Assembly (NCBI GenBank): GCA_042852035.1
Contig: BAAFHK010000003.1
Location: 180,001 to 212,000 of the forward strand
Direction: 5' to 3'
DNA: 32,000 bases
From: Candidatus Saccharimonadota bacterium
GTDB lineage: Bacteria; Patescibacteriota; Gracilibacteria; BD1-5; UBA2023
In this document: in pieces, positions 3,303 through 30,748 of the stretch
Layout of the letters: every line of letters starts with the position of its first letter
Position numbering within the stretch: position 1 is the first letter of the stretch
The notes under the pieces: generated by a model
Told to the model about the DNA's origin: nothing
Database searches by the model: none
The model's input: the letters and a program-made list of their open reading frames with translations, nothing else
Position numbers and translations under genes: made by a program

Positions 3303-6155
3303 ATGTCAGAATTTATCGAAATTATTGGAGCAGAAACCCATAACTTAAAAAATATTGACCTTAAGATTCCAAAAAACAAGCTTGTTGTTATGACAGGAGT
3401 TTCTGGATCTGGAAAATCTTCCCTTGCTTTTGATACCCTCTATGCTGAAGGTCAAAAACGATATCTCGAGTCCTTATCGACCTATGCACGTATGATTGTT
3501 TCAGAGACTTCCAATGAAACAAGGGTTAGAGAAATACGAGGTCTTTCGCCAACCATCGCCATAAACCAAAAAACAGTTTCAAACAATCCAAGATCGACAG
3601 TTGGAACGATAACAGAAATATATGACTATTACAGACTTCTGTATTCAACGGTAGGTCAGGCATATTGTCCTAATCATTCACATATCATCCTAAAAAAGGA
3701 TACCTTGCAAGACATTGTCAAACATGTGTCGAAGTATGGCGAAGGAACAAAGTTTCATATCCTTATTGATCCAGCAAAGGACAGAAGTTTCTCAAATATG
3801 AGTGAGGTGTCGAAGTATGTGAGCGATCTTTGATTTGTACGCTTTCAAGCGAATGAGAACATCTATTCTGTAGCGGATGATGTATCTGAGATAGCTTACA
3901 CTGAAGGGATTAAAATCATTATTGATCGCCTGGTGGTAAAAACTTCAGAAGAAGAAAAGCATCAATTTGAAACAAGATTAAAGGACTCCCTTTTTCTTGC
4001 ATATGCTCGGTGAGAGGGAACGCTCTATCTCTATTTTCTTGACGACAAAAAATATTTTTCATTTCATGAGGATCCTGCTTGTCCTATATGTGGTTTTTCA
4101 CAGAAAGAACTTACCCTTTCGAATTTTTCATTTAACTCCCACCATGGAGCTTGTGAGGTCTGTCATGGAATCTGATCCTTCACTACTTTTCGAGAGCAAG
4201 ATGTTGTTAATCCCAATCTTACTCTCGCAGAGGGGGCACTTCTTCCATGGACCGCACATCCATATTATTCGGCCCTTCTTGAAGTAGTGTGTCGGCATGA
4301 AAAAATCGATATAAATGTTCCATACTCCACTCTAAGTCCTGATGAAAAAAATAAGATTCTCTATGGAGTAACTTGAAGCTTCGAGATTCCTTATATGGGA
4401 AAGTTTGATGAGGGAAAAACTCATAAATCTCGATATGAGGGACTTATACCAAATCTCGAAAGAAGATACCGAGAATCAGATATGGGGAATGATGCATTTT
4501 TTAAACGAATCGCCAACTTTGTCACAGAACAAGTGTGTCGAAGTTGTGGCGGACATCGTCTGAAGAAAGAATATCTTTCCGTATTGGTATGAGGAAAAAA
4601 TATTGGCGAACTAACTGATTTTTCTGTCGAAGATTCAAGATCCTTCTTTAATAATCTCATCTTTACAAAAGAAGAAAAAGAAATCGTTGCCTCTATTATG
4701 AAAAATATTACTGAGCGACTGGAATTTCTTTCATGAGTTTGACTGGATTATGTTACCCTATCTCGAAGAGCAAACACTCTCTCAGGATGAGAAAGTCAGA
4801 GAATTCGTCTTGCTACACAAATTGGTACAAGACTTGAGTGAATTATCTATGTTTTGGATGAGCCCTCTATCGGTCTCCATCCCCGAGATAATGAAATGCT
4901 CATACAAAATCTCAAAAGATTGGCAACGATTGGCAATAGTGTCATAGTCGTCGAACATGATGAAGACATTATGAGGGAAAGTGACTATATTATCGATATT
5001 GGACCACGAGCAGGTGTCCACGGTGGCGAAGTTATTTTCTCCGGAACATATGATGCAATTATTTCCTCACCTGAATCCGATACTTGAAGGTATCTATCAG
5101 GGAAGAATCGAGTTAATCGTCGACATTTTGTCGACACAAAATCGACAGAATATATCGCCATCATGTGAGCCGAGGAAAACAATCTTAAGAATATAAATGT
5201 TCGTATTCCTCTCGGATGTCTTACTGTTGTTACAGGAGTTTCCGGATCTGGGAAATCTTCCCTTATAATCGATATCCTTTCCGTTGCTCTGCAAAATCAC
5301 TTTAATGGTTCTACACATCCTGTTTGAAAACATCGTTCAATAGAGTGACTTGAAGCTATAGATAAGGCCATAATTATTGACCAATCTCCTATTGGGAAGA
5401 CTCCACACTCAAATATCGCCACTTATACGGGAGTTTTTACCTACATTCGTGAAGTGTTTGCTGCAAGCCATGAAGCCCAAAAGCGCTGATATGGTCCAGG
5501 AAGATTTTCTTTTAACACTAAAGGGGGTCGTTGTGAAATTTGTGAATGAAGTGGAGTAAAGAAGATAGAAATGCACTTTCTGCCTGATGTATATGTTGAA
5601 TGTGAATCCTGTAATGGAAGTAGATACAATCCAGAAACTCTCGATGTAAAATTTAAGGGAAAGAGTATTGCTGATGTTCTTGATATGACCATTGATGATG
5701 CTTGCGAATTCTTTAGTGCATTTCCGAGAATTAAGCGAGTTCTTGACGTTCTTCAGGATGTTTGACTTGGTTATATTACTCTTGGTCAGTCAGCACCGAC
5801 ACTTTCTTGAGGAGAAGCTCAAAGAATTAAGCTTGCTTTTGACCTAGCAAAACGATCAACGTGAAAAACACTATATATTCTCGATGAGCCAACAACAGGA
5901 CTTCACTTTTCAGATGTACAAAAACTTCTAGATATTCTCGATGCACTCGTAGAAAAGGGGAATAGTGTGATCGTTATAGAGCATAATCTTGATATTATCG
6001 CTAATGCTGATGCAATAATCGATATTGGATCTGAATGAGGTGATAAGTGAGGAAATCTTGTTTTTGCTTGACCACGTCAAAAACTTCTAGATGTCCAAGA
6101 GAGTTATACAGCAAGAGCACTGAGTAAATATCTTCATCAAAAGGGGGCTCTATAA
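3303..6155 (+). CDS. uvrA: excinuclease ABC subunit A
   Basis: A 950-codon frame from ATG 3303 to TAA 6153-6155 with 21 in-frame TGA by my count. Motifs: [23 protein letters not shown]-like N-terminus, two ABC signatures LSGGE (Gly = TGA at 4788 and 5808), second P-loop [25 protein letters not shown], and zinc-finger CxxC pairs. Track ORFs 3264..3833, 4395..4592, 4854..5087 and 5571..5765 are fragments of it. Confidence 0.95.
5120..5147 (+). repeat. three TCGACA repeats at 11-nt spacing inside uvrA
   Basis: gTCGACAttttgTCGACAcaaaaTCGACAgaa, with copies at 5120, 5131 and 5142. Confidence 0.85.
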
Positions 6156-9470: not shown

Positions 9471-10000
9471 GTTATGTGTGGTTCTTTGAGATAAATCGGG
9501 GAAAGTTGATCCACGTTTGAGATTCTCTCGAAAATCTTTGAGATGTATGGTATTTCTTCGGTATATTCTATAAACTTTTTTGCATCTGTAAAATCATTTT
9601 CATTTCCATATCAGCAGTATGATTCTTTGTTCTTAAGTTGTGATTTCTCTATGAGGAATGGGCCATCTTCTCCAAGAATGATGTATTCTCGTTCATTGGC
9701 GATAAGTATCGGGTTTGGATGATTTATAATCTCAAAAAAATGAACCCCCTTCAATGGGATTTTTTTTACGAGAGAAATAGTATTGAGTGTCAGAGTTACT
9801 ATTCGCATTCTCGTGAAAGATCAAGGTCAAACAATACACCAAATTGTGTCGATATTATGTCGATTTATAATAGTAGTTACCTCCTCAGGAAACATATTGT
9901 AGTCATTTCATTTTGGTATTGTCGAAGTATGTCGAACTTCGCCATTTTCAATAACAAAAAGTCGTATTTCTTGACCGATGGGATTGACAAATAGTATCAT
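9419..10000 (-). CDS. tsaB: tRNA threonylcarbamoyladenosine biosynthesis protein TsaB (YeaZ-like)
   Basis: Joins track ORFs 9908..10141 and 9611..9808 (same frame) through TGA codons. IDTIWCIVGPGSFTRMRIVTLTLNTISLVKKIPLKGV matches the GPGSFTGLRIG core of TsaB. The start is taken at ATG 9998-10000 (MILFVNPIG). TAA at 9419-9421. Confidence 0.7.
9847..9938 (+). repeat. two pairs of TGTCGA(N) repeats inside the minus-strand tsaB gene
   Basis: TGTCGATattaTGTCGAT at 9847 and 9858 (11-nt spacing). TGTCGAAGTaTGTCGAACT at 9920 (exact 9-mer) and 9930 (10-nt spacing). Confidence 0.85.
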
Positions 10001-10088: not shown

Positions 10089-11603
10089 CTATGACGATCC
10101 TCGGTATGAGAGCGCTTCGAGGATGTGTCTTGATTCAACAAATTCCTCTCAATCTATATCAGCAATCGTTCGTGCTACCCGAAGGATGCGATAAAATACG
10201 CGAGTTGAAAGATGGAGTCGTTCGGTTGATGTTATGGCTATTTTTCGGGCCTCTTCTTTGATCTTCCCAAAATAATCAATATCTTTATTATTCATTTCTG
10301 CATTTTGATGGAGGTTGGTTCCATGAAATCGCTTTTTTTGAATTAATCGGGCTCATTCTACAATCTTTCGAATTTCAGCACTTGTTTTTCCTTTATTTTT
10401 GTTTTCTAATTCACCCGCTTTAATCCGGGGAACCTGAATAAAGATATCAATACGATCAAGAATAGGACCCGAAAGTCGTGATCGATATCTTTCTATAGAA
10501 CTTGCTGTACAAAGGCATTCTTTTTGAGAGTCTCCCATATATCCGCAAGGACAGGGATTCATTGCTCATATGAGTGCAAATCTTGCAGGATATCGACAGC
10601 TCATATTTACCCGATTAATGCTGATTTCTCCATCTTCAAGCGGCTGTCTCAATGTCTCGAGTATTCTTTTATCGAATTCAAGAAACTCATCGAGAAAAAG
10701 AACCCCCTTATGTGCGAGTGATATTTCTCCCGGCCGAGAATCTCTTCATCATCAGACTATGGATGCTTCACTTGCTGTATGATGGATAGTTCGAAAGGGT
10801 CTATCTAAAACAAGTGGCATTTCTTTTGTGAGGAGTCAGGCCACGGAGTATATTTTTGAAAGTTCAATTTGCTCCTCGACTTCCATATCTGGGAGAATGC
10901 TTGCGAGAGCCTTTGCAAGGAGGGTTTTTCCTGATCAGGGTGGTCACTGCATGAGGATATTATGTCATCAAGTTGCAGCTATGAGTAGGGCCCTCTTTGC
11001 CTGTTCTTGACCGTGAATGAATGAAAAATCTATCCCAAGATATCCTTTTGGAATTTTTTTTATATCGAACTTCGGGGCTGCTTCTATGATTTTTTGTCCA
11101 GTCAATAGATCAACCACATCGCTCAGTTGATCAACACCAATAATATCAATACCAGGAATAATTGTTGCTTCGGGGATATTTGCTTTTGGTAAGAAAATCC
11201 GTTTATATCACAACTCTCTTGCGAGGATTGTTGCTGGAAGGGCTCACTGAACTCATCGTACCCCTCCATCGAGAGCAAGCTCCCCGAGAAAGAGGGAGTG
11301 GGAAAGGATCTCTTCTTGAAACTCGATTTCTTTGCCAAGAATTCCAAGAGCTATAGGTAAGTCATAAATGGGTCACTTTTTCTTGAGATCAGCAGGAGCC
11401 AGATTCACCGTGATTCGGGCTCATCCAGGGAATTTATATCACGAGTTTTTCATGGCACTTCTTACGCGCTCTCGGCTTTCTTGTATTGCAATGTCCCCGA
11501 GTCATACTATCGTGAATTGTCACATTCCAGTAACAACATCAACTTCAACTTCTACGAGATTTCCAATAATCCCATGCATCGAGGCTGAAAAAAGTTTTTG
11601 CAT
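10089..11603 (-). CDS. comM: YifB/ComM family Mg-chelatase-like ATPase
   Basis: A 504-codon minus-strand frame from ATG 11601-11603 to TAG 10089-10091. The N-terminus [37 protein letters not shown] and [11 protein letters not shown] match ComM. Also present: a P-loop (GPPGSGKT with TGA glycines), the track ORF 10353..10562 segment [10 protein letters not shown], and the C-terminal [30 protein letters not shown]. Confidence 0.9.
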
Positions 11604-11776
11604 TTCTTGAATATACGAAGAAATATTGCGGAAATATTACTTTTCTTCAAAATTCCATCCTCATTCCTTCTTTGGACCATTTTCCATAATCTTGTAAAGT
11701 GAAAATGAAGCCGAATGTTTGGAATGATATTATGAATCTGTTACTATAGACTCACACCTTAGATTGCTAATTTTGT

Positions 11777-14773
11777 ATGCAGCGTTACCTTTACATATTC
11801 ATTGTGTATTTTCTTTCCTTCGTTGAATACGCGGGTGCAGTTAATAGATATGTAGCTACAAAGGAAGAAAAATGAGTTCAGTCGAGTAAGATTGGAGATT
11901 TTGTCGTAACGATCCTTGAAAACACTATCAATCTTCTTCTTTTTATCGTAGTTGCTTGGATTATGCTCAAGGTTATTCGCCTTGGGTATGAGGTGTTAAT
12001 GTCTGGACGACTTGTTTGTATGAAGGTCACACTCCCTCGTGCAGATTCAAAACTTGATAAAGAAAGAGAAACAAAAAAAGACTTTAAGGAGAAAGTTGGT
12101 ATCATGTCAATTTTTTATAAGTCAGTTCATAATCTTACCCAAGCAAGTGCCCTTGATACCGTAATGAATTTCTTCTTTAGGCATGCAAAAATTTCCCTTG
12201 AACTTATGTATCATGATGGGATGGTACATTTTTATGCCATAGGATATCAAGAGCACATGTCTCTCGTGGTTCAACAAATTACTTCAAACTACCCTGATGC
12301 CGAAGTAAAACTTATAGAGAGGGATAAATTTCCTGAAATTAAACCACTTGGCTTTACTCTTCAGGCAGCATCAGTCGGGAAGGTAAATGACGACGTTTTC
12401 CCTATTAAGACCTATAAATACTTTGAAGATGATCCACTTTCATCGTTTACGAATAACTTCTGATCACTCAAGAAAACGGATGTTGCATCAGTACAAATGG
12501 TGATGAAGCCACTTGGACATTCTTGGAATCGAAAAGCAAAACGAGCCGCAGGACTTGTGGCAAAAGGAGAGTATAAAAAGGGAATGAAATCCTCATTTAT
12601 CGTACAATTCTTAAAATGACTTATAGCACCAATAAATTGGCTTGCCTATCGTTTTGTGAAAAACGAGCAAAGCCCTGGGAGTAATGCTCCAGGGGCTACA
12701 AGCGGTGATTCGTATAAGATTTTTAACCAAGCAGAAACAGAAGCACATAAAATGGTTGGTGAGTCAGCGGGTCAGCCAGGATTCGCTGCATCTATAAGGA
12801 TTCTCGTTGCCTCTGATACGAGCGAATCAGCAAGAAATGCTCTACAAAATCTCGTAGCGGCTTCCTCTATTTTTACGGATGAATATAATAATCAACTCGA
12901 TAATCCACAACTCCTCGAAGATACTTTCCGCTTCCTTTTTACTCCATTACGATATTTTGCCTACCGATTTAGACTTCTTGGTATTCTTCAGACCGTATCA
13001 AAGTTTTCTTGTGATGAACTCTCAACGATATACCATTTCCCTGATATTAATTATAATAAGTCTCCAGTAATATCGTGGCTTGAGTATAAAATGCTTTCCC
13101 CTCCACCGAATTTGAGATTTCCCAAGGAGCCACTCATCATGAAGGACTATAAAAGAGATGCAAAGGGAAATATTTTCACAAACGACGGATCCCTTCTTCA
13201 GGTTGATAAGAATAAGAATCTTGTAAGAACGGCAGATAAAGACCTCCTTCTTCTTGACGGTACAGTTGTTCCAGTAGCTAAGGAAGGAGAATCAGTGGGT
13301 CGCCCTATCGATGAAGGGAAGACGCCAGTACAGGCTGATTTGCACCGTACACTCCAATGATTCCCACTCTTTAAAGATGGTGTTCTTATGGGATGGAACG
13401 AATACCGAAATCATCGTACCCCAATATATTTTGCCAAAAAGGATCGCGGACGTCACCACTATATAATAGGTAAATCTGGTTGAGGTAAGTCAGTATTTAT
13501 TGGATACCTTGCTCGCCAGGACCTTTGGACGGGGGATGGGCTCTGTGTTATTGATCCTCATGGTGATCTAGTAGAAGACATCGTTTCATTTACGCCAAAA
13601 GAAAGGGCTAAAGATATGATTATCTTTGATCCAGCAGACTATGAACGTCCAATGGGGCTGAATATGCTTGATATTATTGCAACTGACCCAGCTCTTCGAT
13701 CAATCGAGAAAGATCGAGCAGCCCTCGATGCTACCTCTATATTTATTAAGATGTACGGTGATGAGATATTTGGGCCACGTATCCAACACTATTTCCGTAA
13801 TGGATGTCTCACCCTCATGGATGATGAAGAAGAAGGAGGAACACTCATTGATGTGCCAAGACTATTTGTCGATGAATGATTCATGAAATACAAGACATCG
13901 AAGATAAAAAATGTAATGGTGAAAGCCTTCTGGGATCATGAATATGCTCAGACGGGTGATCGAGAAAAACAAGAAATGATTCCGTTTTTCTCAGCAAAAT
14001 TTGGACCATTCATCACAAATACAACCATGCGTAACATTATTGGACAGACGAAATCTGCCTTTAATCTGCGTCAAGTTATGGATCAACAGAAGGTTCTTAT
14101 GGTGAATCTTTCAAAGGGTCGCATCGGAGATCTCAATGCTCAACTTCTCGGTCTCATTATGGTTTCAAAAATTAATATGGCCGCAATGAGTCGTGCTGAT
14201 ATTCCGGAAGATCAAAGAAAAGACTTTTATCTTTACGTCGACGAATTTCAGAACTTTGCGACCGATACTTTCTGAGAAATCCTCTCTGAGGCTCGTAAGT
14301 ATCGACTAGCACTTATTATGGCTCACCAATTTATCGCTCAAATCTGAGGAAGCGGTGCAAAAAAATGAGATAAACCTTCTATTAAAGATGCTGTATTTGG
14401 GAATGCGGGAACAATCATGTCTTTTAAGGTTGGTGCTGAAGATGCTGAATATCTCGAGAAAGAATATGCTCCAATGCTCTCACAACAAGATATTATTTGA
14501 ATTGCGAATTTCACAACTTACTGTAAACTCAATATCGATAATGCAACAACTCGACCATTCGATCTTAAGACAATTTGGGACAATACCTATAAGAATGCAG
14601 AAGTATCGAAGATTATCAAAGAGTACTCAAGAAAAATGTATGGAAGAAAAAAGGAGTATGTCGATATGGAAATCGAGGCCCGCATGGGTATTGTACGAGA
14701 AGAAGAATCCCAGAGTACTCCCACTCCTTCTGCTGACCCAACTTTATGAAATCCTAACCAAGGAAATCCTTAA
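11777..14773 (+). CDS. VirD4/TraD-like type IV secretion coupling ATPase with N-terminal membrane anchor
   Basis: Frame open from ATG 11777 (preceded by TAA 11768-11770), through TGA 11873, into track ORFs 11963..12463, 12656..13360, 13616..13879 and 13883..14275, ending at TAA 14771-14773 (998 codons). It has two N-terminal hydrophobic segments. Motifs: Walker A HHYIIGKSGGGKS (Gly = TGA 13481-13483), VIDPHGDL, Walker B FYLYVDEFQNFAT, ARKYRLALIMAHQFIAQI. The N-terminal VCMKVTLP...HFYAIGYQEHMSLVVQQITSNYPDAEV region resembles the domain preceding TraD-like ATPases in CPR genomes. Confidence 0.75.
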
Positions 14774-14779
14774 ACTCCT

Positions 14780-16009
14780 ATGAACTTCCTTCACCGACTC
14801 CTCCCAGTGGTCGTATTCATCTTAGTAGTGCTTGATGCTGTACTTCTTTTCTGATTTTGAAATCAGTGAATTTTGAAGTGATTTGTAAATAGCTCACCAC
14901 TTCTCTCTTCGCTGATTATTTTAGCATGACTTCCGCTTCTCTATTTTATTACGTATAAAGCCTATATCTGACCGATACAGAGACTCAATAAAAGTATTTC
15001 TCGTTTTATGACGGGGATAGATGAAGAGCCAGTTCTTGAAGCAAATGCCTGGAGTAAGGGGATGAATTATGTTATTTGATTTTTTGTAAAGTCGCTTCAA
15101 ATTCTCCGTATTTTCAAAAAGGAACTTAGAGAAGGAAGACAGCTTCGAACCGAAGTAGAAATCGCATCAGAAATACAAAAGAACGTTATGGCGGATAGCA
15201 ATAGTATCGTTCCTTCTTTGGAGATTGCACTTGCGACACATTCTGCTTCTGAGGTTGGAGGTGATTCTCTTGGTATTATCTCTTGAGTGGATGAAAACTA
15301 TTACATGTATATATGAGATGTAACTTGACATGGCGTTCCAAGTGGGCTTGTTATGATGATGGTGAATGCTCTGGTATCAGCATTTGTACTGAGAGAAGAA
15401 AGCAGTGCGAAAGTGCTTGCCGAAACAAATCGAATCCTAAAGCCTCGCATTAAACAAAATATGATGATGAGTGCAGTAATGCTTCGGTGGGACTATAAAG
15501 ATAAGGCACTCTACTATACTTGAGCAGGACATGAATTCATTCTTCTTTATAGCAAAAGAGAAAACAAAGTATTCAAAATTAAAACGGGTTGAGTAGCTCT
15601 TGGTATGATGAGAGATGCATCAAAACTTTATAAAGAACAGCAGATTCGATTTGAGCCTGAAGATATTATTATTCTTTATACGGATGGAGTTACAGAAGCT
15701 CGTTATCGAAGTGAACAAAATTGACTTCTTTTCGGAATTGATAAAATGGTCGAGTCAATTTTGAAGGTTCCAGAAAAAACAGCAGATAACATTTTTCGAC
15801 AAATCACTATCGATCTTTCGGCTCATATGGGCTATAAACACAAGCAGTACGATGATATTTCTCTTTTTGTCGCTCGATATGCTGGAGGTTCAGGATCTAC
15901 GAATACAGCAGCTCATGAACTTATAGATCAGAGTAATATCACAGAATGGAATTGGTGAAGAGCTCCCGTAACCTTCAAACCCTCGCTAACACTAGATACA
16001 AATTCGTAA
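14780..16009 (+). CDS. membrane-anchored PP2C-family (SpoIIE/RsbU-like) serine phosphatase
   Basis: ATG 14780 lies 6 nt after the preceding stop, in the same frame as track ORF 15746..15958. Two N-terminal TM helices and a linker are followed by EIQKNVM...SEVGGDSLGI...YIGDVTGHGVPSGLVMMMV...GAGHEFILLY...IIILYTDGVTEAR...DDISLFVARY, the SpoIIE/PPM signature. In-frame TGA at 15956 is followed by 16 codons, then TAA 16007-16009. Confidence 0.85.
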
Positions 16010-16012
16010 CAT

Positions 16013-18067
16013 ATGGCAGTTCCTACGCTCGCTGAGCTCATACAAGAAAACTATACGTGAGATGTCGAATGACTCGAAGCACCTCTTTTGGTCAATCCTC
16101 CTGAAATAAAGAAAGAAATCGAAAAAACTGATATAAATGCAAATTTTTTCCCTTCGAATGAACCCCAGAATAGTCCTACTGCCCCTGTCCCAGCAAGAGT
16201 GAATATTGATTCCGATCCTTCAAGTTCACTTTTTATTACCCCAGAGATGGCGCAGCCACCGTCATCCAGTGCACCAAATCCGAAGAATGTTTCGATGGTT
16301 GAGGATCCAAATAAAAAGCTTACGAAAGAAGAGGCTGAAGAGCTCAGAAGAACTGAAAAAGAATATAAAGAGGCTCTTGCGTTTGTGAAAGATATGATTG
16401 CTCCGCCCATGATGCGAATCGATGCAACCAAGCTTCAGATTGGAGATACTTTTGTGAGAACTACCTATACGTACGCTTATCCTGATGTTTTGGAAGGGAA
16501 TTGGCTTTCCCCTCTTATTAACTGGGATGTAAAATTCGACGTATCCATGTTTATTTATCCAGTTGATTCAGCCCATGTGATGCGCTTTCTTCGGAGGAGA
16601 CTGACTCAGCTGAGGTCCCAGTATGCAATCAATCGTGATAAATGACTTATAGAAGACCCTCATCTGAATGCCCAAATGCAAGATGTTGAAGAGCTTCAGG
16701 TGTCACTTACACGAGGTCAGGAGAAATACTTTCATTTCTCTCTCTATATTACCACGTATGCAGAGACTGAAGATGATATGAAGCGTCTCTCGAATACTCT
16801 CGATGTCATGCTCTCAGGTCGAAATATTCTTACAAAGCAAGCCCTTCTTCGTACGGAGCAGGGGTTTATCGCAACAGGTCCATTCGCTCGAGATGAAGTA
16901 CTCGTGTACCGAAATATTTCAACAAAAGGTCTTTCGACAACTTTTCCTTTCTCATCAAATTCTCTTTCCCAGGACGATGGAATATTTTACTGAATAAATA
17001 CCCATAATAATTCTCTTATTATTTTTGATCGCTTCAGAACAGAAAATGCGAACATGTGCGTTTTTGCAAAATCAGGTTGAGGAAAGTCTTTTGCTGTAAA
17101 ACTCGAAATTCTTCGGTCGCTTATGATGGGGACTGATGTTATCGTTCTAGATCCTGAAAATGAGTACAAGGCTCTTGTTGATACGGTTTGAGGAACTTAC
17201 TTAAACATTAATCTCAACTCGAACGAACGTATTAATCCTTTTGATCTTCCAAGAGGCATGAAAGATACTGAAGCTCATGCTGGAGATTTGCTACGATGAG
17301 CGATTGTGAATATGATTGGTCTTCTTCGTCTCATGCTCGGAAGTGTGACACCAAGTGAAGAGGCAATTATGGAACGAGCACTGATAACTACGTATTCTCT
17401 TAAGGGGATTACTATGGAAGATGATCGAGCGGAATGAAAGGAAGTTCCACTTATGAGAGATTTTGTGTCGGTACTTGAAACTATGGATGGAGCAAAATGA
17501 CTTGTTGAACGACTTGATAAATATGTCAATGGAGTTTTTGCATGAGTTTTCTCTGAGCCAACAAATGTAGACCTTAAAGATGGACTTGTTGTATTTTCAG
17601 TTCGTGATCTTGATGAGATTCTCCGTCCAATTGCCATGTATATTATCCTTAATTACGTTTGGAATGTTGCAAGAAGTTCAGAGAAAAAACGAACTCTTGT
17701 TGTGGACGAGGCATGGAATATCATGCAGTATGAAGACTCAGCAAAATTCCTCTTCGGTCTTGTAAAGCGAGCTCGTAAATATGGACTCGGGGTTACAACC
17801 ATTACTCAGGATGTAGAGGATTTTATGCAGAATCAATATGGGAAAGCTATCGTAACAAATTCTTCAATCCAACTTCTTCTTAAGCAGTCACCCGCATCAA
17901 TCGATATATTACAAGACACATTTAAGCTTACAGAACAAGAAAAATATATTCTCCTAAATGCTTCAGTTGGTACGGGCCTCTTCTTCGCGGGAGGGGAGCA
18001 TGTTGGTATCCAGATCCTTGCCTCGTACTTCGAAGAGAAAATTATTACGACGAAGCCGAAGGTATAA
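16013..18067 (+). CDS. VirB4/TraC-like type IV secretion ATPase (DUF87/AAA_10-like)
   Basis: ATG 16013 lies 3 nt after the phosphatase stop. It joins track ORFs 16088..16645, 16676..16993 and 17636..18067. Motifs: Walker A MCVFAKSGGGKSF (Gly = TGA 17078-17080), VIVLDPENEY, Walker B RTLVVDEAWNIM, RKYGLGVTTITQDVEDF, SSIQLLLKQ. The first ~110 aa are Pro/Ser/Glu-rich low complexity. Confidence 0.85.
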
Positions 18068-18212
18068 TAATTTCTGGAAAATTCCGTCAGAGAGTTCTAC
18101 GGATTCGAGAGTGAGAGTTTATCCAGTTGAGAGTTCGGAATATTTTCATAAGATTTTTGATAGTCTCTTTTTGATTTGGATTTATTCAATCAAGTGCTAA
18201 AAGTACACGATT

Positions 18213-18719
18213 CCTAAAATCTTGTTCAAGGCCTTTAAGTTCAAATTCCGGAAATTCTGTTGCGAATGTTTTTTGTCAGCGTCTTCGATCATCATTTCTA
18301 TCAATTATATCATCATAGACCTGCATCCAAGAGCCTAGCTGGAAGACTGCTGCATTCAGGCTTTCATGGTCTCATGTTCCAAAAAATTGTCCAAATCCAA
18401 TAGTCATGGTTGAAGTATTTCATCAGGTGTCTCGTGCAATATTTACCCAATCATCAAATGACCCTCCTTCCATAATTAATTGATTCCGTACTACAGACTC
18501 GAGTCTTTTTAATGTGTCACAAAGGTCACTATTTTCTCAAATGAGTTTATGAAATTCAAAGGCTAAAAGCTCGAGTTCATGCAAATGAGGGGTATCGAAA
18601 TACAGCATCTCACTCGTTTCTCAAGAAAGTAGTAGAAGAAAATGTTTTAATATTTCTCTCTTATGTTCCACCGCAAGCTCAGAGTATTCATTATCGGTGA
18701 GATTATCAATATTTCTCAT
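18213..18719 (-). CDS. hypothetical protein, polyprenyl-synthase-like C-terminal-half remnant
   Basis: Hand translation from ATG 18717-18719 to TAG 18213-18215, 168 aa. ARDTGGNTSTMTIGFGQFFGTGDHESLNAAVFQLGSWMQVYDDIIDRNDDRRRGQKTF resembles the KTG...G.aFQ..DD..D second Asp-rich region of trans-prenyltransferases. No first DDxxD motif was found and the C-terminus is short. Confidence 0.35.
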
Positions 18720-18748
18720 GACTATTCAAAATAGCATGGCAGCAAGTT

Positions 18749-18946
18749 TTATACCTTTTCTTTTATTTTCTGGTACTCAGTAGAGTTTTGATGATACATC
18801 TCAGGTCCAATATCAAATTCCGGCACGAAAGCTCGCATGTGTAAGAAGAATCTCGCGAACTTTTCATTGAATATTGGGGAATTTTTCTTGTATAAAGTGA
18901 CGATATTCAACCCTTCATTCATATATTTGTCAAAGTCATCTTGCAA
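18749..18946 (-). CDS. small hypothetical protein
   Basis: Track ORF with a TTG start (first ATG at 18920-18922 gives 57 aa) and a TAA stop at 18749-18751. It lies immediately upstream of the ORF above, in a different frame. No recognisable motif. Confidence 0.25.
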   Translation of the reverse strand: MQDDFDKYMNEGLNIVTLYKKNSPIFNEKFARFFLHMRAFVPEFDIGPEMYHQNSTEYQKIKEKV

Positions 18947-18977
18947 GCATGAAATTATTTATATATAAATAATTTAT

Positions 18978-19205
18978 TTAGTCAATAACTATTACTTTCT
19001 TTCGAGTATTTGTCCATCCGCCCACAATCTCCCACTTCCTCCCTGTCTCTTCTTCGAGGTATTCGAGGAGTTCTGTATTTGCTTTCCCATCTTCTGGGAT
19101 GGCTTTGAGTCGAATTTTATAGCTTCCGTCATCCATTATTCCTACAAATTCTGTCTTTTTTGCTCTTGGGATGACCTTTATGGTGAGGATGTTGATGTCG
19201 GGCAT
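18978..19205 (-). CDS. DUF167 (YggU-like) family protein
   Basis: Only the C-terminal 75 aa of track ORF 18978..19721 is taken (MPDINILTIKVIPRAKKTEFVGIMDDGSYKIRLKAIPEDGKANTELLEYLEEETGRKWEIVGGWTNTRKKVIVID). This is the typical DUF167 length and pattern (V.P.A..... ..l...APP.dGkAN..l). The rest of that ORF is antisense to mtaB. Confidence 0.7.
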   Translation of the reverse strand: MPDINILTIKVIPRAKKTEFVGIMDDGSYKIRLKAIPEDGKANTELLEYLEEETGRKWEIVGGWTNTRKKVIVID

Positions 19206-19250
19206 GAGAGAAAGTTGCATACTCGGAGTTTCTCGATATAAAGTGGCTCT

Positions 19251-20549
19251 ATGGAGTATAAAGTTTTCGGGTGCAAAACCAATAGATATTTTGCAGAAAA
19301 GTGGCTCATGCATCCTCACCTTGAGGGAAAGGGGGGATATTTTATTGCCTCTTGTGTTGTCACGGATAAGGCGAAGGCTAAATGGCTCAAACATGCTAAA
19401 AGAGTAATCCCAAAGCTCGAAAAAAACCAGAGCCTCTACCTCTCTGGGTGTGGTAATATTCGTGATGGAGTTGTCGATCCAAAATTCTATGAGATCTATC
19501 CGGAACTTAGTGATTATCGAGAGAAAATAGAGATCCTCCCCGAAGATCCTGAGGATTTTACTCTTACTCCTGAGCAAAAAAAGGAAATTATGGTGAGCAA
19601 AATCAGAAAGCTCAGAAGTCTTAAGAAAGAAGGTATTTTCACGCGTAAGTTCCTCGTCGTTCAGACGGGGTGTGATAATTTCTGTACCTTTTGTCTTACG
19701 GTTCAGGCTCGGGGTCGACATAAATGGAGGCCTATTGATGAGATTCTTGAAGAAATCAATGACTTTATTGATGGAGGAGGCAAAGAGGTAGTTCTTACAG
19801 GTATAAATCTTTGAGCCTGGTGATCCCCATCATCAAATGACTTCCAGTTGTCGAAGTTTGTCGAACTTGTCGAAGTTATTCTCAGAAAAACTACTATAAA
19901 TCGCTTAAGAATCTCATCACTTGGTGTCGAATTTATGTCGGATGAACTAATTTCACTTTTTTGAAAGAAGCGAATTAATCCCTATGTTCATCTTTCTATT
20001 CAATCAGCATCATCAAAAATACTGAAAGCAATGAATCGTCACTATACTGGAGATAGGCTTCGAGAGGTTCTCGAGAAATTGAGAAACGTAAAACGTGAAG
20101 ATGGGCAACTCCTTAATATCTGAGCTGATCTTATCGTAGGTTTTCCAGGTGAAACAGAAGAAGACTTTTGAGAAACAAAGGAAATTGTCGAAGTATTTAA
20201 AATTACCCAACTTCATGCTTTCCCTTTTTCAGCACATATTGATCACTATCATGTACCAGCAGGGACTTATCCAAATCAAGTACCAAATCATGTTATACAG
20301 AGAAGGCTCAAAGAGCTTCTTCATGTTTGAGAACGAACATTCCTCTCTTTTGCAGAAAATGCGATTGGGAAAGAATACTCTGTTCTTCTTGAGAGAGTCA
20401 ATGGTCAGAATTTTTCCGGGTGGTCAGAAAATTATCTCTACTGTAATGAGACAAACTTTGAGGTATTCCCATGACAAGAGCTACGAAGGGGCGCTATTAT
20501 TCATTGAATTTATAAAAGCCCTATAATACATTCAAATGAAGAAGGTTAA
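19251..20549 (+). CDS. mtaB: radical SAM methylthiotransferase, MiaB/RimO family (MtaB-like)
   Basis: Track ORF 19251..19814 continues through 6 TGA codons to TAA 20547-20549 (432 aa). Features: the N-terminal MTTase domain FGCKTNRYFAE, the radical SAM cluster motif GCDNFCTFC, IVGFPGETEEDF, and a TRAM-like C-terminus. Confidence 0.8.
19849..19876 (+). repeat. three tandem TGTCGAA(G/C)T repeats inside mtaB
   Basis: TGTCGAAGTtTGTCGAACTTGTCGAAGT at 19849, 19859 and 19868, encoding LSKFVELVEV. Further copies lie at 19925 (TGTCGAATT) and 20186 (exact). Confidence 0.9.
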
Positions 20550-22723: not shown

Positions 22724-23188
22724 ATGAGCAATTCTCTAAACAAGGTTCAATTAATAGGAAATCTTACTGCGGAACCAGAGGTTCGTGAGACTCCGAATTG
22801 ACAAAAGGTTGCTACCTTTTCTGTTGCAACGAATCGTAAGTGGAAGGATGCTGGAGGCATGCTCCAAGAAGATACGGAGTTTCATAATTGTGTTGCATGG
22901 AGAGGACTTGCTGATATTGCGGAGCAATATATGCACAAGGGGAAGAAAGTTTATGTGGAATGATATCTTAAAACTCGTAATTGGGAAGATACTGCTTGAG
23001 TGAAGCGCTACAAAACTGAAATTGTCGCAGATAATGTTATTCTTCTTTCTTCTCCGGCATGAGAAGGCGGAAGCTATGCTTCACAGTCAGGCTCATCATA
23101 CTCAGAAAGTATTCCAGAAGAGCCTCGAGTAAAAAAATCAAAGTCAAAAGCTGAAGAAGAAATTGCCATTGAAGATATCCCATTTTAA
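22724..23188 (+). CDS. ssb: single-stranded DNA-binding protein
   Basis: MSNSLNKVQLIGNLTAEPEVRETPNGQKVATFSVATNRKWKD...FHNCVAWRGLAD...VYVEGYLKTRNWED forms the OB fold. A Gly/Ser-rich linker leads to the acidic tail IAIEDIPF. There are 4 in-frame TGA (for example in PNGQ). TAA at 23186-23188. Confidence 0.9.
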
Positions 23189-23213
23189 AAAATCCCCATT
23201 TGGGGATTTTTTT
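23189..23213. terminator. bidirectional intrinsic terminator between convergent ssb and the VirB4-N-like gene
   Basis: AAAATCCCC-attt-GGGGATTTT hairpin flanked by an A-run and a T-run, immediately after the ssb stop. Confidence 0.7.
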
Positions 23214-23255
23214 CAGATGAATGATTTATGTTCAGTTTTAATTCGAGGAAATTCA

Positions 23256-23975
23256 CTATCCTAAGTTCAGGCTTTCCGTATCGGCCTTGAGATTATTTTC
23301 CGTTTTAATTCGAGGATTATAGTAATTGTAGACTAATTTAATGAGATCTTCCTTTTCAAGGATGCTTGCTTTCAGTCAGATAGCCTCAAGACTCATTTTA
23401 ACCGTTGATACGCGCTCATAATTTTGCTTCTTGAGTTTATCTGTCCTAATGCGATTCATTCGGATATCAGAAGCATTTTCTTCCTGTCTTAGAGCGCTCC
23501 AAAAGGATGAAAATATTCAGAAGAAACTTGTTTTCCGAACACTCTCATTATTTTCCATATCATAGGGCACTATAATATAGAACTCTTTTTTCATGATTTG
23601 TGCGAGATCTACCAAATTCGTTAAGAAGTCAACGTATTTATAGGTTTGTTCCTGGAGAAGGGAGTTTGTTTGTTTGAGGGCAAGATTTTTGAGTCGATTT
23701 ATATAGGCCTCGATATCAACCTTTACAGATCTTACAACTATTTGGATAGGAAAATTGATGGAATTCAAGAATCTCTGATAAGAAATAAGAATAGCATCTT
23801 GTTCGTCGGTACTTTTGAGATTAAAGTTTGTCGCATGAACTCGCAGAATCATACGTGATGATCCATCTTTCATAATCATGAGATTATCTCTGATTTCGGA
23901 AAATGGAAGATAGCGCTGAGTGCTACTATCTTGAGGAGGTTTCTTTCATGTTTTTACAGAACTAGTATCAGGCAT
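23256..23975 (-). CDS. standalone VirB4/PrgJ N-terminal-domain-like protein (no ATPase domain)
   Basis: Track ORF 23517..23879 extends upstream to ATG 23973-23975 and downstream through TGA 23517 and 23376 to TAG 23256-23258 (239 aa). YLPFSEIRDNLMIMKDGSSRMILRVHATNFNLKSTDEQDAILISYQRFLNSINFPIQIVVRSVKVDIEAYI...KEFYIIVPYD has the layout of the domain preceding the P-loop in Gram-positive-type VirB4 proteins. No Walker motifs are present. Confidence 0.5.
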
Positions 23976-23977
23976 AT

Positions 23978-24394
23978 TTAAAGCTTTCCAATATTAGAAG
24001 AGAGTTCCTCATTCATTTTTGATTCGAGAGAGGTGTTCTTTTTTATTTCTTTTGTCTGTGCTCCAGGGGTAATATATCAGATTTCTAAGTCTGAATAACT
24101 ATCAGTACCTAGAGACCACCCTCTGAGTTTTGCATTCAAATGAAGTCTACAAAAATTCAGTACAGCTGGAAGAAATGTCATTTCAGAAATTTTGACGAGG
24201 GCAACTATAATAAAGAGTATTACAGGTATGACAGCAAACACGGTCGCAACCTTTGAGCCAACTTGTTGACTTAAAACATTAAATACCGTATATCCAAGTC
24301 CTCATCATACAGCAATTATCCCAAGTTGCCTCAAGGAAAGGCCGGCAACAATGGTGTCTTCGTTTTCTATCTGGATGGGAATCTTGTATTGCAT
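23978..24394 (-). CDS. PrgI family (VirB3-like) small membrane protein
   Basis: Hand translation from ATG 24392-24394 to TAA 23978-23980, 138 aa. MQYKIPIQIENEDTIVAGLSLRQLGIIAVGGGLGY (two Gly = TGA TGA), followed by two TM helices, matches the PrgI-family N-terminal pattern (Y.iP..id.EDkI.G.ltlrQ). Its stop lies 2 nt from the next start. Confidence 0.6.
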
Positions 24395-24469
24395 ACTATT
24401 CTTGAATTTTTTCTTTTGTAAGTATATAGTAATTTCTCTTCATGTGCAAGGTGTTTGTTTTGGATTCTT

Positions 24470-24497
24470 TTGACTTTTAGATGCTTCATCGTATAAA
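24470..24497 (+). promoter_or_regulatory. sigma70-like promoter candidate for secF
   Basis: TTGACT (24470-24475), a 16-nt spacer, then TATAAA (24492-24497), about 75 nt upstream of the secF ATG. Confidence 0.3.
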
Positions 24498-24572
24498 TGG
24501 ATTGATTTTTCGAAATAGTGTCCCAAAGCAAGATATTTATAATTCTTGGCCGTTACCCCTAACCTACACTCT

Positions 24573-25544
24573 ATGTATTCATTCGTTCATAATCGCTTTA
24601 AATACTATACCATAGCTTGAATTCTTGTATTATTCGCGCTGGTTTCACCATGGTTATTTGGTCTGAATCAAGGAATTGACATGACATGAGGAATTCAGAT
24701 AGAGTACCGTGTTGATTCTTGAGATGAACTTCAGGGAGAGGCTTTAGCAAAAGCCACAGCACTTGAATATAAGAAATCTATTACAGTAGGCGGAAAAGAG
24801 GTAATTAACGACGTTATCGTATATGGCATAGCTGGTACACCATCATTTATTGTTGAAGCATGATTCGCAACTCCAGAATGAGCAACGGATGCAGATATGG
24901 AGGCTGCAAAAACGGCTTTTACAAAGAATGTTACTGATAAGCTTGCATCATCTCCAGATGCAAAAATCAGTCAGTCGCGTTATGTAAATGTTTGAGAATC
25001 TTTCGGAGCTTATATTAAGAAGTCTGGATATGTAACTCTTACACTCGCGATTATTATGATTGCAGTTTATATTGCGTATGCATTTCGTGGATCTATACCA
25101 GGTATGTCTAGTTGGCCTTTTGCTTTAGTTACTTGAGTTTCTTTAATTCATGATGTTATAGTTGCTTTTGGGCTTTATGTGTTCACCTCATTCTTTTTTC
25201 CTGAGTTCAAGATTGATACATTTTTTCTTACAGCAATGTTAACTATACTGGGATACTCGATTAATGATACTATTGTTGTTATGGACCGAATCCGATCTAA
25301 TCTTGAGTCTGGGGATGGGAAAAAGAGTGGACTCTCGGGAATAATTGATAAATCAATCCATGATACCATGACTCGATCTATATTGACTTCTTCTACAGTA
25401 TTTATTGTGCTTCTTGCGATGTTCTTCTTTGGACCAGATAGTCTGAAGGGCTTTACGCTTGCTCTTCTTTTCGGTACAATTGTAGGAACGTACTCATCAA
25501 TTTTTCTTGCTTCACCTCTCCTCGTAGATATTACCAAGAAGTAG
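24573..25544 (+). CDS. secF: protein translocase subunit SecF
   Basis: ATG 24573 is in frame with track ORF 25179..25544. GIDMTGGIQIEY (TGA Gly), the TM bundle ...LIHDVIVAFGLYVF...TILGYSINDTIVVMDRIRSN... and GTYSSIFLASPLL are SecF hallmarks. TAG at 25542-25544. No secD is adjacent. Confidence 0.85.
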
Positions 25545-25553
25545 AAATGTCTT

Positions 25554-25587
25554 AAAAAAATCCACCCCGAAGGGGTGGATTTTTTTA
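25554..25587. terminator. bidirectional intrinsic terminator (secF / pilin-like gene)
   Basis: A7-TCCACCCC-gaa-GGGGTGGA-T7. The TAA of the convergent minus-strand gene (25585-25587) sits in the T/A tail. Confidence 0.75.
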
Positions 25588-26382
25588 ATTAGTAACAATA
25601 TAGTATGGGCCGCTTCATTTCACAAGATGTCCGTAGAGATTATTTGAACTTGTTTCTTCTTCGCTATATTCACTGAGAGGTTTTGCAGAGTTCCCAAGGG
25701 TTGGATCATCAAGTTTTGTTCCAATAGCGTAAAATTTTGCCCCTTTAATAGTGGAGGCATTTCCTCTTTCGTACTCTATGTCTCAGTATCCTCGGTACTC
25801 ATATTCACCAGGACGTGAACAGCCTACATTTTTATGATTTTTATTTGGATCAACGGGAACCCCCTTAGGAAAGTAGTTTGAGTTTAGATACTCTTGAGGT
25901 AAACATCAGCTAATATCATTAGGTGGATACATTTCTTTATCCGCATAATAAGCTCATAATGTTGTCGCAATCTTGTTCAAATCAAGGATTCGTACTTCAT
26001 CACGATTCTCATTAGAGGCGAGAGGGTTATCATCCTCTGCTTCTTCGTAAGACTTGAGTTTATTTTTGAGACTTTCTATTTCTTGATTGAGTCTGAGGAC
26101 TTCTTTTTCATTATCATTTTTTATTGATTCGATGGATCCAGATGATTCAGCTTTTATACGTAGGATTTCTCATTCATTTGTTTCTTTGGTCTTTTGAAGT
26201 TCATAATAGAGCCCTCAGATTGCTATGAGAAAAATAAATTCAACAATACTTAGACCTATAATAACCATTTTATAGGTACTCTTTTTTACTTGAGGTGGAG
26301 GTGTTTGATCTATTGGGGGAGGATTTCCAGAACTTTCTGAGGAAAGGGGGTTATTTGGAGTTGTATTGAGGAGTTCTTCCAT
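25585..26382 (-). CDS. membrane-anchored protein with coiled coil and pilin/pseudopilin-like globular domain
   Basis: Verified triplet by triplet: no TAA or TAG between ATG 26380-26382 and TAA 25585-25587 (265 aa, 6 TGA). It has a Pro-rich N-terminus, one TM helix (MVIIGLSIVEFIFLIAIGGLYY) and a coiled coil. RDEVRILDLNKIATTLGAYYADKEMYPPND is the motif typical of type IV pilin/GspG-like domains in CPR. No G/FxxxE prepilin cleavage motif is present. Confidence 0.55.
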
Positions 26383-26482
26383 GGGGGCGGAAATTAGGTA
26401 TAGAGTATGTGATTATAGTAGCATAAATTTCTTCTTAGGACAAATTCTTTGAGGAGATAAGTTTTTCTATATACTTCGGACT

Positions 26483-27553
26483 ATGATTTCAAGAATTTCG
26501 CTCTCATGATTCCGCGGTATAAAAAATAGAGCCTTCAATCTTACAAAGAAATCTGCCATTATTGGTATGAATGGTTCAGGAAAGACACATATCCTTGAAG
26601 CCATTCATCTTGTATCAGGATGACAGTTACACTACTTTCAGGCTCCACGAGAGGAACACTATAATCTCGAACTTTCGATTGATTCTTTGATTTGACCACG
26701 GACATACAATCTCATCAGAAATGACTGAAGAGAAGAATTCCGAATACAATGATGAAAAGTAACTTCAATAAAGTACAAAGAGGACCTTCCTTATAGGACT
26801 GTGTTTCTTTCGCCTTTCGATATGAATTTGCTCTATTTTGCCCCGGCAATTCGACGAGATTATCTTGATTCTATTCTTTCCCGCGCCTATGCTCAATTTC
26901 CTAAGATAAAGCGTGAATATGAAGCTGCTATGAGGCAGAGAAATGCTCTTTTGAAAAAAATTCGTGACCATGAGGTGGATAAAAAAAATCTTGATTACTG
27001 GGACCGAGTTTTTGCAGAAAAAGCGCAAAACTACCATCAATATCGAAAAAGTCTAATAACTTTTATAGAGCAAAATTCAAAGGTATTTTTAGAGTTTCTT
27101 CCGAAGTATAAGCATAGATTCTCCTATATTTCAAAATTCAATGAACGAGATGATATCCAAGAGTTTACTCTCGCGTATCTTCACGAGAATAGGGATCGTG
27201 ATATTATTACTGGTCATACACATATTGGTCCTCATCTAGATGATTTTATCCTCGAGATTCAATACCAATGAGATACCCAGTCGTTTCTTGATGCTACCTT
27301 GGTGCTTTCTCGGTGAGAGACTAAAGTTCTTCTGCTTGCTTTGAAGCAAATTGAAATTCTTTTTTTGAAAAAAATATTCCAGTCTCCCATAGTTCTACTT
27401 TTCGATGATATTTTTGCGGAACTTGATCAAAATTATGCTGAACATGTAATCGAAACATTTGACGTTGACCAAGTAGTATTTACAACTCAAAGAGTGCTTC
27501 CTGTTTCGGAAAAATGGGAGGAATTTTCTTGCATAAACCTTGAACTTCAATAA
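26483..27553 (+). CDS. recF: DNA replication and repair protein RecF
   Basis: MISRISLSGFRGIKN...IIGMNGSGKTHILEAIHL (Walker A). Joins track ORFs 26801..27271 and 27341..27553. SRGETKVLLLALKQ (signature-like) and VLLFDDIFAELD (Walker B) are present. TAA at 27551-27553. Confidence 0.85.
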
Positions 27554-27598
27554 TATGAGCCAAGTATTTCGACTCAGAATAGTTTCTCACTTTTTCGT

Positions 27599-29311: not shown

Positions 29312-29320
29312 ATTCGAAAA

Positions 29321-29345
29321 AAATACCGATAATTCGGTATTTTTT
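29321..29345 (+). terminator. intrinsic terminator after the surface-protein gene
   Basis: AAATACCG-ataatt-CGGTATTT hairpin running into TTTTT (29341-29345). Confidence 0.6.
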
Positions 29346-29420
29346 GTATACATTATTTTTTCGCTGATATCGACAGAACCCCTTTAGATTCCTTTTATGA
29401 AAAGGAACTATTATTTTCCT

Positions 29421-29448
29421 TTGACATCTCCTTTCATTTTTATATAAT
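29421..29448 (+). promoter_or_regulatory. consensus sigma70-type promoter for rpmH-rnpA
   Basis: TTGACA (29421-29426), a 16-nt spacer, then TATAAT (29443-29448), 32 nt upstream of the rpmH ATG. Confidence 0.55.
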
Positions 29449-29480
29449 CCCGAAGCTTTAAAAAACTAAGTTCCCCTAGT

Positions 29481-29720
29481 ATGCTCGCAAAATTCAAGAA
29501 AAGAAAACGTCTTCGTGTTCATGGATTCCTTGCTCGAAAGAGTACGGTTGACGGACAAAAAGTTCTTCGCGCACGCCGAAGAAAAGGTCGTCATGTTCTC
29601 GCGGTGAGTTATCCAAACCGTGTAAAGAATATTCGTGGAAAAAGTAAACACCACAATATCGCCGGAGGAAACGCTCGGATCGTTACCTATCCTGGTCTTA
29701 CTGAAAGATTTCGTGGCTAA
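29481..29720 (+). CDS. rpmH: 50S ribosomal protein L34 with C-terminal extension
   Basis: [43 protein letters not shown] is a full L34 domain. The frame then continues 35 more codons ([36 protein letters not shown]) to TAA 29718-29720. Confidence 0.8.
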
Positions 29721-29735
29721 TTCACCTATTCTCGC

Positions 29736-30128: not shown

Positions 30129-30142
30129 TGAGTTTGTCTATT

Positions 30143-30745: not shown

Positions 30746-30748
30746 AGT

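Follow-up and report, generated by a model that had tools for sequence, protein, structure and literature searches.

A probable type IV secretion ATPase operon with an embedded SpoIIE-type phosphatase gene in a Gracilibacteria chromosome

We analyzed a 32,000-nucleotide stretch of DNA (hereafter the window; positions 180,001 to 212,000 of contig BAAFHK010000003.1, assembly GCA_042852035.1) from a bacterium of the class Gracilibacteria, within the Patescibacteria, focusing on a block of three genes that encode a coupling-type ATPase, a SpoIIE/PP2C phosphatase and a VirB4-family ATPase. A relaxase-less chromosomal type IV secretion system (T4SS) motor is already known and common among ultra-small candidate phyla radiation (CPR) organisms; what appears to be new is the SpoIIE–VirB4 gene pair, here joined to the gene of the type IV coupling protein (T4CP).

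The three genes and their products

Reading TGA as a sense codon (code-25 calling) yields three plus-strand open reading frames (ORFs) that span 11777–18067 (Table 1), while translation table 11 breaks the same sequence into pieces, the biggest of 166–234 aa. Codon 33 of gene 1 is TGA 11873, which hides the start of the gene from standard-code callers, as a first-pass annotation of this DNA had pointed out. The tight three-gene layout that it described was reproduced to the exact coordinates: the junction between genes 1 and 2 reads ...cct TAA actcct ATG, a 6-nt gap, and that between genes 2 and 3 reads ...tcg TAA cat ATG, a 3-nt gap. The use of code 25 was also borne out. Across aligned orthologs, the 35 codons that are TGA in the three genes correspond to Gly in 562 instances and to TGA in 287, and the ten commonest residues do not include Trp; TGA is therefore read as Gly, and code 25 rather than code 4 applies.

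Table 1. Coordinates of the three-gene block, its upstream region and the second group of secretion genes in the window
Feature	Position	Strand	Length	In-frame TGA	Basis or remark
Intergenic region, presumed operon promoter region	11604–11776	.	173 bp		Common to the divergent comM (10089–11603, minus strand)
Gene 1, T4CP/VirD4-type ATPase	11777–14773	+	998 aa	11	Transmembrane anchor, DUF8128 (PF26449), P-loop ATPase
Gene 2, membrane-anchored SpoIIE/PP2C Ser/Thr phosphatase	14780–16009	+	409 aa	14	Pfam SpoIIE
Gene 3, VirB4-family T4SS ATPase	16013–18067	+	684 aa	10	NF045971, P-loop_TraG, PDB 4ag5
TrsD-like protein	23256–23975	-	239 aa		NF045975, NF041427; 2 nt downstream of PrgI
PrgI-family (VirB3-like) small membrane protein	23978–24526	-			Pfam PrgI

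In many public homologs (among P0002–P0120), conserved Gly positions at which the window has TGA are filled by Trp, apparently because code 4 was used for their translation in place of code 25. The 998-aa protein is identical to NCBI HHAS10_11610, which is annotated as hypothetical in a metagenome-assembled genome of Candidatus Altimarinota (Gracilibacteria), and the depositor's annotation therefore used the right code. The three genes also share one reading frame, with one TAA and two codons between the first two and one TAA and one codon between the last two, and roughly one in two related triplet loci also has neighboring genes in a shared frame. Stop-codon read-through would yield fusion proteins; the shared frame may be due to chance or to shared ancestry.

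Judged by its sequence, gene 3 encodes a genuine monoderm-type VirB4. It scores 349.9 bits against the NCBIfam CD1110-family model NF045971 (cutoff 325; model positions 172–734 of 752) and 88.9 bits against Pfam P-loop_TraG (PF19044; cutoff 25.8, 3.5e-25), and in the PDB it matches the Firmicute (Thermoanaerobacter) VirB4 4ag5 at 5.7e-43 (150 bits) and R388 TrwK at 2.2e-5 (26 bits). The ranking of family scores, with CD1110 ahead of the VirB4 of the Mycoplasma integrative and conjugative element (ICE; 245 bits), F-type TraC (174) and VirB4_CagE (109), is consistent with this monoderm affinity, as are the closest plasmid relatives, which are monoderm and 30–35% identical. Some 100 N-terminal residues of low complexity, rich in Pro, Glu, Asn and Ser, precede the VirB4 N-domain and the C-terminal ATPase, and the Walker motifs AKSGGGKS (near residue 352) and LVVDEAW are invariant across the alignment. 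The architecture is not full-length: the extreme N-terminal segment of the canonical protein is absent and corresponds to a separate TrsD-like gene, as in the pGO1 subclass. Identity is at least 74% in the best 120 matches.

Gene 1 matches Pfam T4SS-DNA_transf (PF02534) at 42.1 bits (cutoff 20.1, 7e-11) over residues 558–896, so that profile searches uphold the earlier naming of the two ATPases as VirD4-like and VirB4-like. Two N-terminal transmembrane (TM) segments are predicted at residues 4–22 and 51–69 by a simple Kyte–Doolittle hydropathy scan, and Walker A (GKSGGGKS) and Walker B (YLYVDE) motifs lie at 565 and 818. The single sequence finds TrwB in the PDB at 1.5e-4; a profile of 77 diverse relatives matches no VirB4 and finds TrwB (2.9e-7) and DotL (8.5e-6). 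The protein thus resembles TrwB/VirD4 and DotL in its two-TM N-terminal anchor, P-loop ATPase and profile match. Unlike them, it carries a DUF8128 region of ~470 aa between anchor and ATPase (PF26449 is listed on homologs), has no relaxase partner in the window and is pilin-linked in most Gracilibacteria.

This large extra domain departs from the canonical plan of anchor, nucleotide-binding domain and all-alpha domain, and the resulting architecture is widespread: 4,632 representative clusters match at E ≤ 1e-30, most of them ~800 aa long and matched in both halves. Literature searches on DUF8128 returned nothing relevant. Across the best 120 homologs identity is 62–91%, with a nearly invariant ATPase half, and both ATPases are under strong purifying selection. 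A second T4CP paralog, 46–50% identical, lies ~8 kb upstream of the main T4CP gene in some Gracilibacteria (L021, L025, L030, L071 and L080), which agrees with a survey of Patescibacteria that counted about two T4CP homologs in each genome (Quiñonero-Coronel et al. 2025, PMC12102498).

The full-length AlphaFold2 (AF2) model of the T4CP, built from 38 close homologs, was poor, with a pLDDT of 55, and all 14 of its Foldseek matches in the PDB at E ≤ 1e-3 were TrwK/VirB4 chains, with alignments covering 380–870 columns (610–870 in 13 of the 14). Residues 70–450 folded alone gave a pLDDT of 61 and a pTM of 0.63, and their top 12 Foldseek matches were again TrwK/VirB4, all weak (E 2.5e-3 to 3e-2, TM-score ~0.3). 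When DUF8128 and the ATPase half were compared with the VirB4 alignment in hhalign, ATPase against ATPase reached just 52% probability, at an Neff of 1.3–2.3 that leaves the comparison no power. As a lead only, the models suggest that DUF8128 may be a VirB4-N-domain-like module joined to a VirD4-like ATPase.

The gene between the two ATPase genes, unnamed in the first-pass annotation, is the most distinctive element of the block. Its product scores 147 bits against Pfam SpoIIE (PF07228; cutoff 25, 8.4e-43) and matches the NCBIfam SiaA-like model at 1.2e-13, far under the cutoff; orthologs are named RsbU or PP2C by their sources. TM segments at 7–25 and 36–54 are followed by a conserved juxtamembrane helical linker (~55–134) and the PP2C domain (171–367), and no Pfam HAMP, PAS or GAF match was found N-terminal to this domain at E ≤ 0.01. 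In combining a membrane anchor with a PP2C domain the protein resembles phosphatases of the SpoIIE/RsbU/SiaA type, with a weak SiaA match. The metal-binding catalytic residues D180, D302, D358 and D359 are invariant in 18 orthologs, and the enzyme is predicted to be catalytically intact. Beyond the catalytic domain, a C-terminal EWNW sequence (residues 389–392; 15944–15955) is invariant in 18 of 18 aligned orthologs and could be a docking motif.

Gene neighborhoods of virB4 and the T4CP gene

We collected T4CP loci from 80 GTDB species representatives and compared their code-25 ORFs with the window proteins; 72 loci had enough downstream sequence for gene order to be read. SpoIIE stood immediately upstream of VirB4 in 18 of 18 GTDB loci, at gaps of 9–47 nt in 15 tight triplets and of 62–205 nt in the other three. 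In a second, independent sample, consisting of metagenome contigs anchored on VirB4, the phosphatase gene was immediately upstream in 16 of the 21 loci with VirB4 at least 63% identical and 3 kb away in one. Farther upstream, the flanks of these SpoIIE–VirB4 loci vary: some have RadA–L31 and others do not, so the pair has stayed together while its surroundings were rearranged. This conserved pair, with SpoIIE immediately upstream of VirB4, has been little described so far and appears to be new.

At greater distance the upstream slot is filled differently. TrsD lies directly upstream of VirB4 in 25 metagenome loci with VirB4 47–50% identical, likely from other CPR lineages, and an intermediate group (50–57%) has neither SpoIIE nor TrsD there. 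One locus of this intermediate group (L109, VirB4 54% identical) has a GGDEF diguanylate-cyclase-domain protein directly upstream of virB4 (4193–5677; Pfam 8.4e-31), again a signaling gene in this slot. For L107, a protein upstream of VirB4 that looked like a receiver found no confirmation in Pfam.

The T4CP gene is followed directly by one or two VirB2-like pilin genes in 51 of the 72 loci, by a pilin gene, RadA, ribosomal protein L31 and then SpoIIE–VirB4 in three, by SpoIIE–VirB4 as the tight triplet of the window in 15, and by something else in three. Synteny of the triplet, which the first-pass annotation had suggested analyzing, accordingly holds in those 15 species loci and not in the 54 where a pilin comes straight after the T4CP gene. 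Counting pilins and VirB4 alike, the T4CP gene is linked to another T4SS gene in 69 of the 72 species. Upstream, a TrxB–bPH–TsaB–ComM block is syntenic in the 15 GTDB species with the complete tight triplet.

On arrangement counts rather than a tree, the most economical reading is that SpoIIE–VirB4 and T4CP–pilin are two older conserved pairs that were later joined, and that the sub-clade of the window then lost or moved the intervening pilin–RadA–L31 segment. The tight triplet would thus be a derived juxtaposition in one sub-clade, and it also appears to be new.

All 29 code-25 ORFs of the window were scanned against Pfam, and further T4SS genes emerged. The PrgI-family and TrsD-like genes (Table 1) form a two-gene minus-strand operon (23256–24526) between ssb and secF, 5.2 kb downstream of VirB4. 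PrgI (PF12666) is matched at 2.1e-11 (44.7 bits, cutoff 27) over residues 48–131, with one strong TM segment at 93–111; its true start is probably an internal Met near 24394. The TrsD-like protein matches NCBIfam NF045975 (VirB4_plasma, the Mycoplasma ICE VirB4 model) over positions 95–235 at 3.4e-10 and NF041427 (TrsD) at 3.2e-5. It resembles the extreme N-terminal part of monoderm VirB4, and the match of gene 3 to the Mycoplasma ICE VirB4 model starts beyond this part, at position 278; BLASTP of TrsD against the window VirB4 found no similarity, consistent with coverage of different parts of an ancestral VirB4.

The first-pass annotation had seen no other T4SS gene around the block and had called the motor minimal. 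The PrgI–TrsD operon contradicts both statements, and the pilins that follow the T4CP gene in most relatives speak against the second. The block is one piece of a dispersed multi-locus T4SS. Proximity of PrgI and TrsD to virB4 is not conserved in relatives, neither having a match in the 80 GTDB loci.

Relation to known systems, proposed working and alternatives

Contrary to the earlier statement that the function was undescribed, this kind of system has been studied in the Patescibacteria. A survey found VirB4 in 2,417 of 3,035 genomes, as a clade nested in MPF-FATA, together with TrsD, VirB3, VirB6 and VirB2-like pilins and almost no relaxases; the genes are chromosomal, and co-option was proposed (Quiñonero-Coronel et al. 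2025, PMC12102498). For Gracilibacteria the same survey reports TrsD and VirB3 away from virB4 and an undetectable VirB6. For the saccharibacterium S. epibionticum, the T4SS cluster (SEML1_0006–0019) was shown to be indispensable to growth as an epibiont (Wang et al. 2023, PMC10633639).

The window system agrees with that picture in being chromosomal and relaxase-less and in having a monoderm MPF-FATA VirB4, TrsD and PrgI/VirB3, with VirB2-like pilins in relatives; as in the surveyed Gracilibacteria, its TrsD and VirB3 genes are not adjacent to virB4 and VirB6 was not detected in the window. It differs in two respects. Its t4cp gene sits in the same operon as virB4, whereas in the survey t4cp was near virB4 in just 148 of 5,713 cases, and SpoIIE/PP2C occupies the slot upstream of virB4 that TrsD holds in the 25 distant loci. 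No phosphatase is mentioned in the main text of PMC12102498, and literature searches for PP2C together with VirB4 yielded nothing relevant, with no phosphatase linked to virB4 in the searched texts.

Monoderm conjugative systems of the MPF-FATA type (CTn2/CD1110; TrsC–TrsD–TrsE of pGO1/pSK41) share PrgI/TrsC, TrsD, VirB4 and a T4CP with the window, and the window VirB4 passes the CD1110 cutoff. Two monoderm clusters illustrate the likeness and its limits. The Embleya plasmid cluster (L083), arranged as PrgI–XF1762–VirB4–T4CP–relaxase-like–NlpC/P60, likewise has a long T4CP (812 aa) adjoining VirB4, and a Pontibacillus cluster (L084) combines a pilin-like protein, a CD1110 VirB4 and an endopeptidase; both are without a phosphatase. 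Identity to these systems is just 30–35%. Unlike conjugative systems, the window locus has no relaxase, peptidoglycan hydrolase or VirB6, its genes are dispersed among housekeeping genes with a phosphatase inserted, and the system is chromosomal, vertically conserved and not mobile.

We consider it likely that the block is the ATPase operon of a chromosomal, relaxase-less, MPF-FATA-derived Patescibacteria T4SS for host interaction, equipped with a phosphatase switch. In T4SSs, VirB4 forms hexamers that dock on VirB3 and on the membrane platform and power pilin extraction and channel assembly, and coupling proteins bring substrates to the T4SS channel. By extension, the window VirB4 would act as a hexameric assembly and translocation ATPase docked on the platform of PrgI/VirB3 and TrsD encoded 5.2 kb away, and the membrane PP2C would most likely work as an on/off control that removes phosphate from VirB4, the T4CP or a partner. 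The machine most likely serves interaction with a host cell (pilus biogenesis and transfer of protein or nucleic acid) rather than conjugation. What the analysis shows is the structure of the genes, their families, their chromosomal setting and the conserved gene pairs; co-transcription, the target of the phosphatase and the transported substrate are inferred.

The 998-aa DUF8128 T4CP would be a working part of this T4SS and not a stray gene, given that its gene adjoins VirB2-like pilins in most Gracilibacteria. The survey suggests that the T4CP may have been exapted (PMC12102498); its linkage to pilins or VirB4 in nearly all of the species loci argues instead for a working part, at least in Gracilibacteria.

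Several observations weigh against this interpretation. Co-transcription of the three genes is inferred from their close spacing (6 nt and 3 nt); the presumed promoter region holds a lone promoter-like match, on the minus strand (11770–11743) and within chance expectation, and promoter and terminator scans, which gave fewer sites than shuffled controls, were uninformative. The T4CP falls below every curated NCBIfam T4CP cutoff, among them TraD and CD1115 (32.1 bits vs 366, 29.3 vs 250), its ATPase half, including the all-alpha region, is poorly modeled (pLDDT 30–40), and the t4cp homolog of S. epibionticum was reported to be non-essential (PMC12102498). VirB6, VirB8, VirB1 and pilin homologs were not found in the 32-kb window; for VirB2-like pilins this holds at phmmer E < 10, and the triplet-clade loci have none closer than 10 kb to the T4CP gene (E ≤ 1e-5). 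The suggested part of the phosphatase in the T4SS is drawn from gene order, no kinase, FHA or STAS partner occurs in the window, and 4 of the 21 metagenome loci with VirB4 at least 63% identical have no phosphatase within 6 kb upstream.

For the phosphatase, control of the H1 type VI secretion system (H1-T6SS) of P. aeruginosa by threonine phosphorylation, through the kinase PpkA, the PP2C phosphatase PppA and Fha1, offers an analogy and no more, which makes a post-translational on/off switch plausible. There, too, a PP2C gene lies inside a secretion-machine cluster; the window differs in having no cognate kinase, FHA or STAS partner. A more specific and quite tentative proposal, which we rate as possible at best, is that the PP2C is a dedicated post-translational switch that uses its membrane module to sense the envelope or host contact and dephosphorylates VirB4, perhaps in its Ser/Pro-rich disordered N-terminal ~100 residues, or a partner, to license pilus assembly or substrate transfer; in parallel, the DUF8128 T4CP would represent a VirB4/VirD4 hybrid ATPase lineage working with the pilins. 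We know of no T4SS controlled by such a phosphatase, and if the proposal is true, this would be the first Ser/Thr-phospho-regulated type IV secretion system. The T4SS of the Patescibacteria is, to our knowledge, currently the sole T4SS shown to be essential for its owner's survival, and a virB4-linked phosphatase across a large clade of Gracilibacteria provides a concrete, testable handle on its regulation. The value added to the published work on this T4SS is incremental.

Among the alternatives, the one that survives best, although we regard it as unlikely, is a nucleic-acid translocation machine tied to competence or recombination, either an importer resembling ComB or Ced or an exporter that works independently of a relaxase. 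ComB of Helicobacter and Ced of Crenarchaeota are also relaxase-less, chromosomal, VirB4-containing machines, and the window system has a coupling-type ATPase. Genes of DNA metabolism recur nearby: comM divergently adjoins the T4CP gene in 29 of 66 species loci, the pilin is separated from SpoIIE–VirB4 by RadA in L017, L047 and L061 and in L087–L089, the window contains ComF-like, UvrA, SSB and RecF genes, and comF, recG and radA are near the T4SS in class ABY1 (PMC12102498).

However, these neighbors are ordinary housekeeping genes of a reduced genome, maybe near the origin, and the linkage may be positional. ComB differs in lacking a T4CP and in having VirB6–10 homologs that were not found in the window, and neither ComB6–10 nor CedA, CedA1 or CedA2 is encoded there. 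The Ced models were matched only generically, VirB4 reaching 56.9 bits for CedB (vs 700) and 27.8 for CedD (vs 600), and the T4CP 16.1 for CedD. In S. epibionticum, moreover, deletion of comEC ends competence and not viability, whereas the T4SS is essential (PMC12857230, a review). The analogy with Helicobacter ComB drawn in the first-pass annotation therefore has little specific backing beyond the adjacent DNA-repair and competence genes.

A decayed, non-functional ICE or plasmid remnant captured by the chromosome is highly improbable and largely refuted. Both ATPases descend from monoderm conjugation machinery, the nearest non-CPR relatives are plasmid-borne, as in the Embleya cluster, and T4SS parts are scattered across the window. 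But the 29 window ORFs include no integrase or recombinase, relaxase, replication or partition gene, and the window contains no tRNA or other Rfam family; a direct-repeat search gave no att-like repeats, just short imperfect ones within coding sequence, and GC is even, with no compositional island. The three ORFs are intact and very highly conserved in many species, between conserved housekeeping flanks, and the plasmid relatives are distant, at just 29–35% identity. The absence of mobility genes and att repeats, together with these flanks, makes a remnant unlikely and agrees with the earlier view of a chromosomal, relaxase-less locus. An imperfect 30-nt direct repeat (77% identical; 9918–9947 and 19847–19876) brackets comM through DUF167; it is probably due to chance, since the two copies are inside coding sequence and relatives have syntenic flanks.

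Least probable of all is that the ATPases are HerA/FtsK-like NTPases outside the T4SS families, for instance in anti-phage defense with the phosphatase as a signaling module: weak DUF87/HerA-central matches (24 and 35 bits) and PADLOC matches to mad8 (33.7 and 69.5 bits) and HerA (17 bits) exist, but the models specific to T4SSs give far higher scores, above curated cutoffs, and PrgI, TrsD and pilin genes occur alongside; no further defense components turned up, and PADLOC gave no match for the phosphatase. The first-pass assignment of the pair to the T4SS ATPases is thus supported.

Neighboring genes in the window

The housekeeping genes of the window encode leucyl aminopeptidase, a ComF-like protein, UvrA, TrxB, a TsaB-like protein, ComM, DUF167, an MtaB-like protein, SSB, SecF, RecF and YidC. 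The block itself is flanked by comM, DUF167 and the radical-SAM MtaB-like gene, as the first-pass annotation had stated; its "prenyltransferase-like" flanking gene was not confirmed. That 301-aa ORF (18045–18950, minus strand) has 16 in-frame TGA codons and shares 23 nt with the 3′ end of virB4. It matches nothing in Pfam or NCBIfam, and the 80 related species loci contain no homolog. In the adjacent 247-aa ORF (18978–19721, minus strand), DUF167 is limited to residues 178–245 and the 5′ part overlaps the MtaB-like gene (19251–20549, plus strand), and the real DUF167 gene is probably about 18978–19200.

Several polytopic membrane proteins without a family match are also encoded in the window, namely two tandem paralogs of ~200 aa (30143–31348, minus strand) and one protein of 400 aa (48–1250, plus strand). 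The genes ssb, secF, recF and yidC lie within ~9 kb (22724–31943), cumulative GC skew climbs across the window, and the region may be origin-proximal, as T4SS genes are in several classes of Patescibacteria (PMC12102498).

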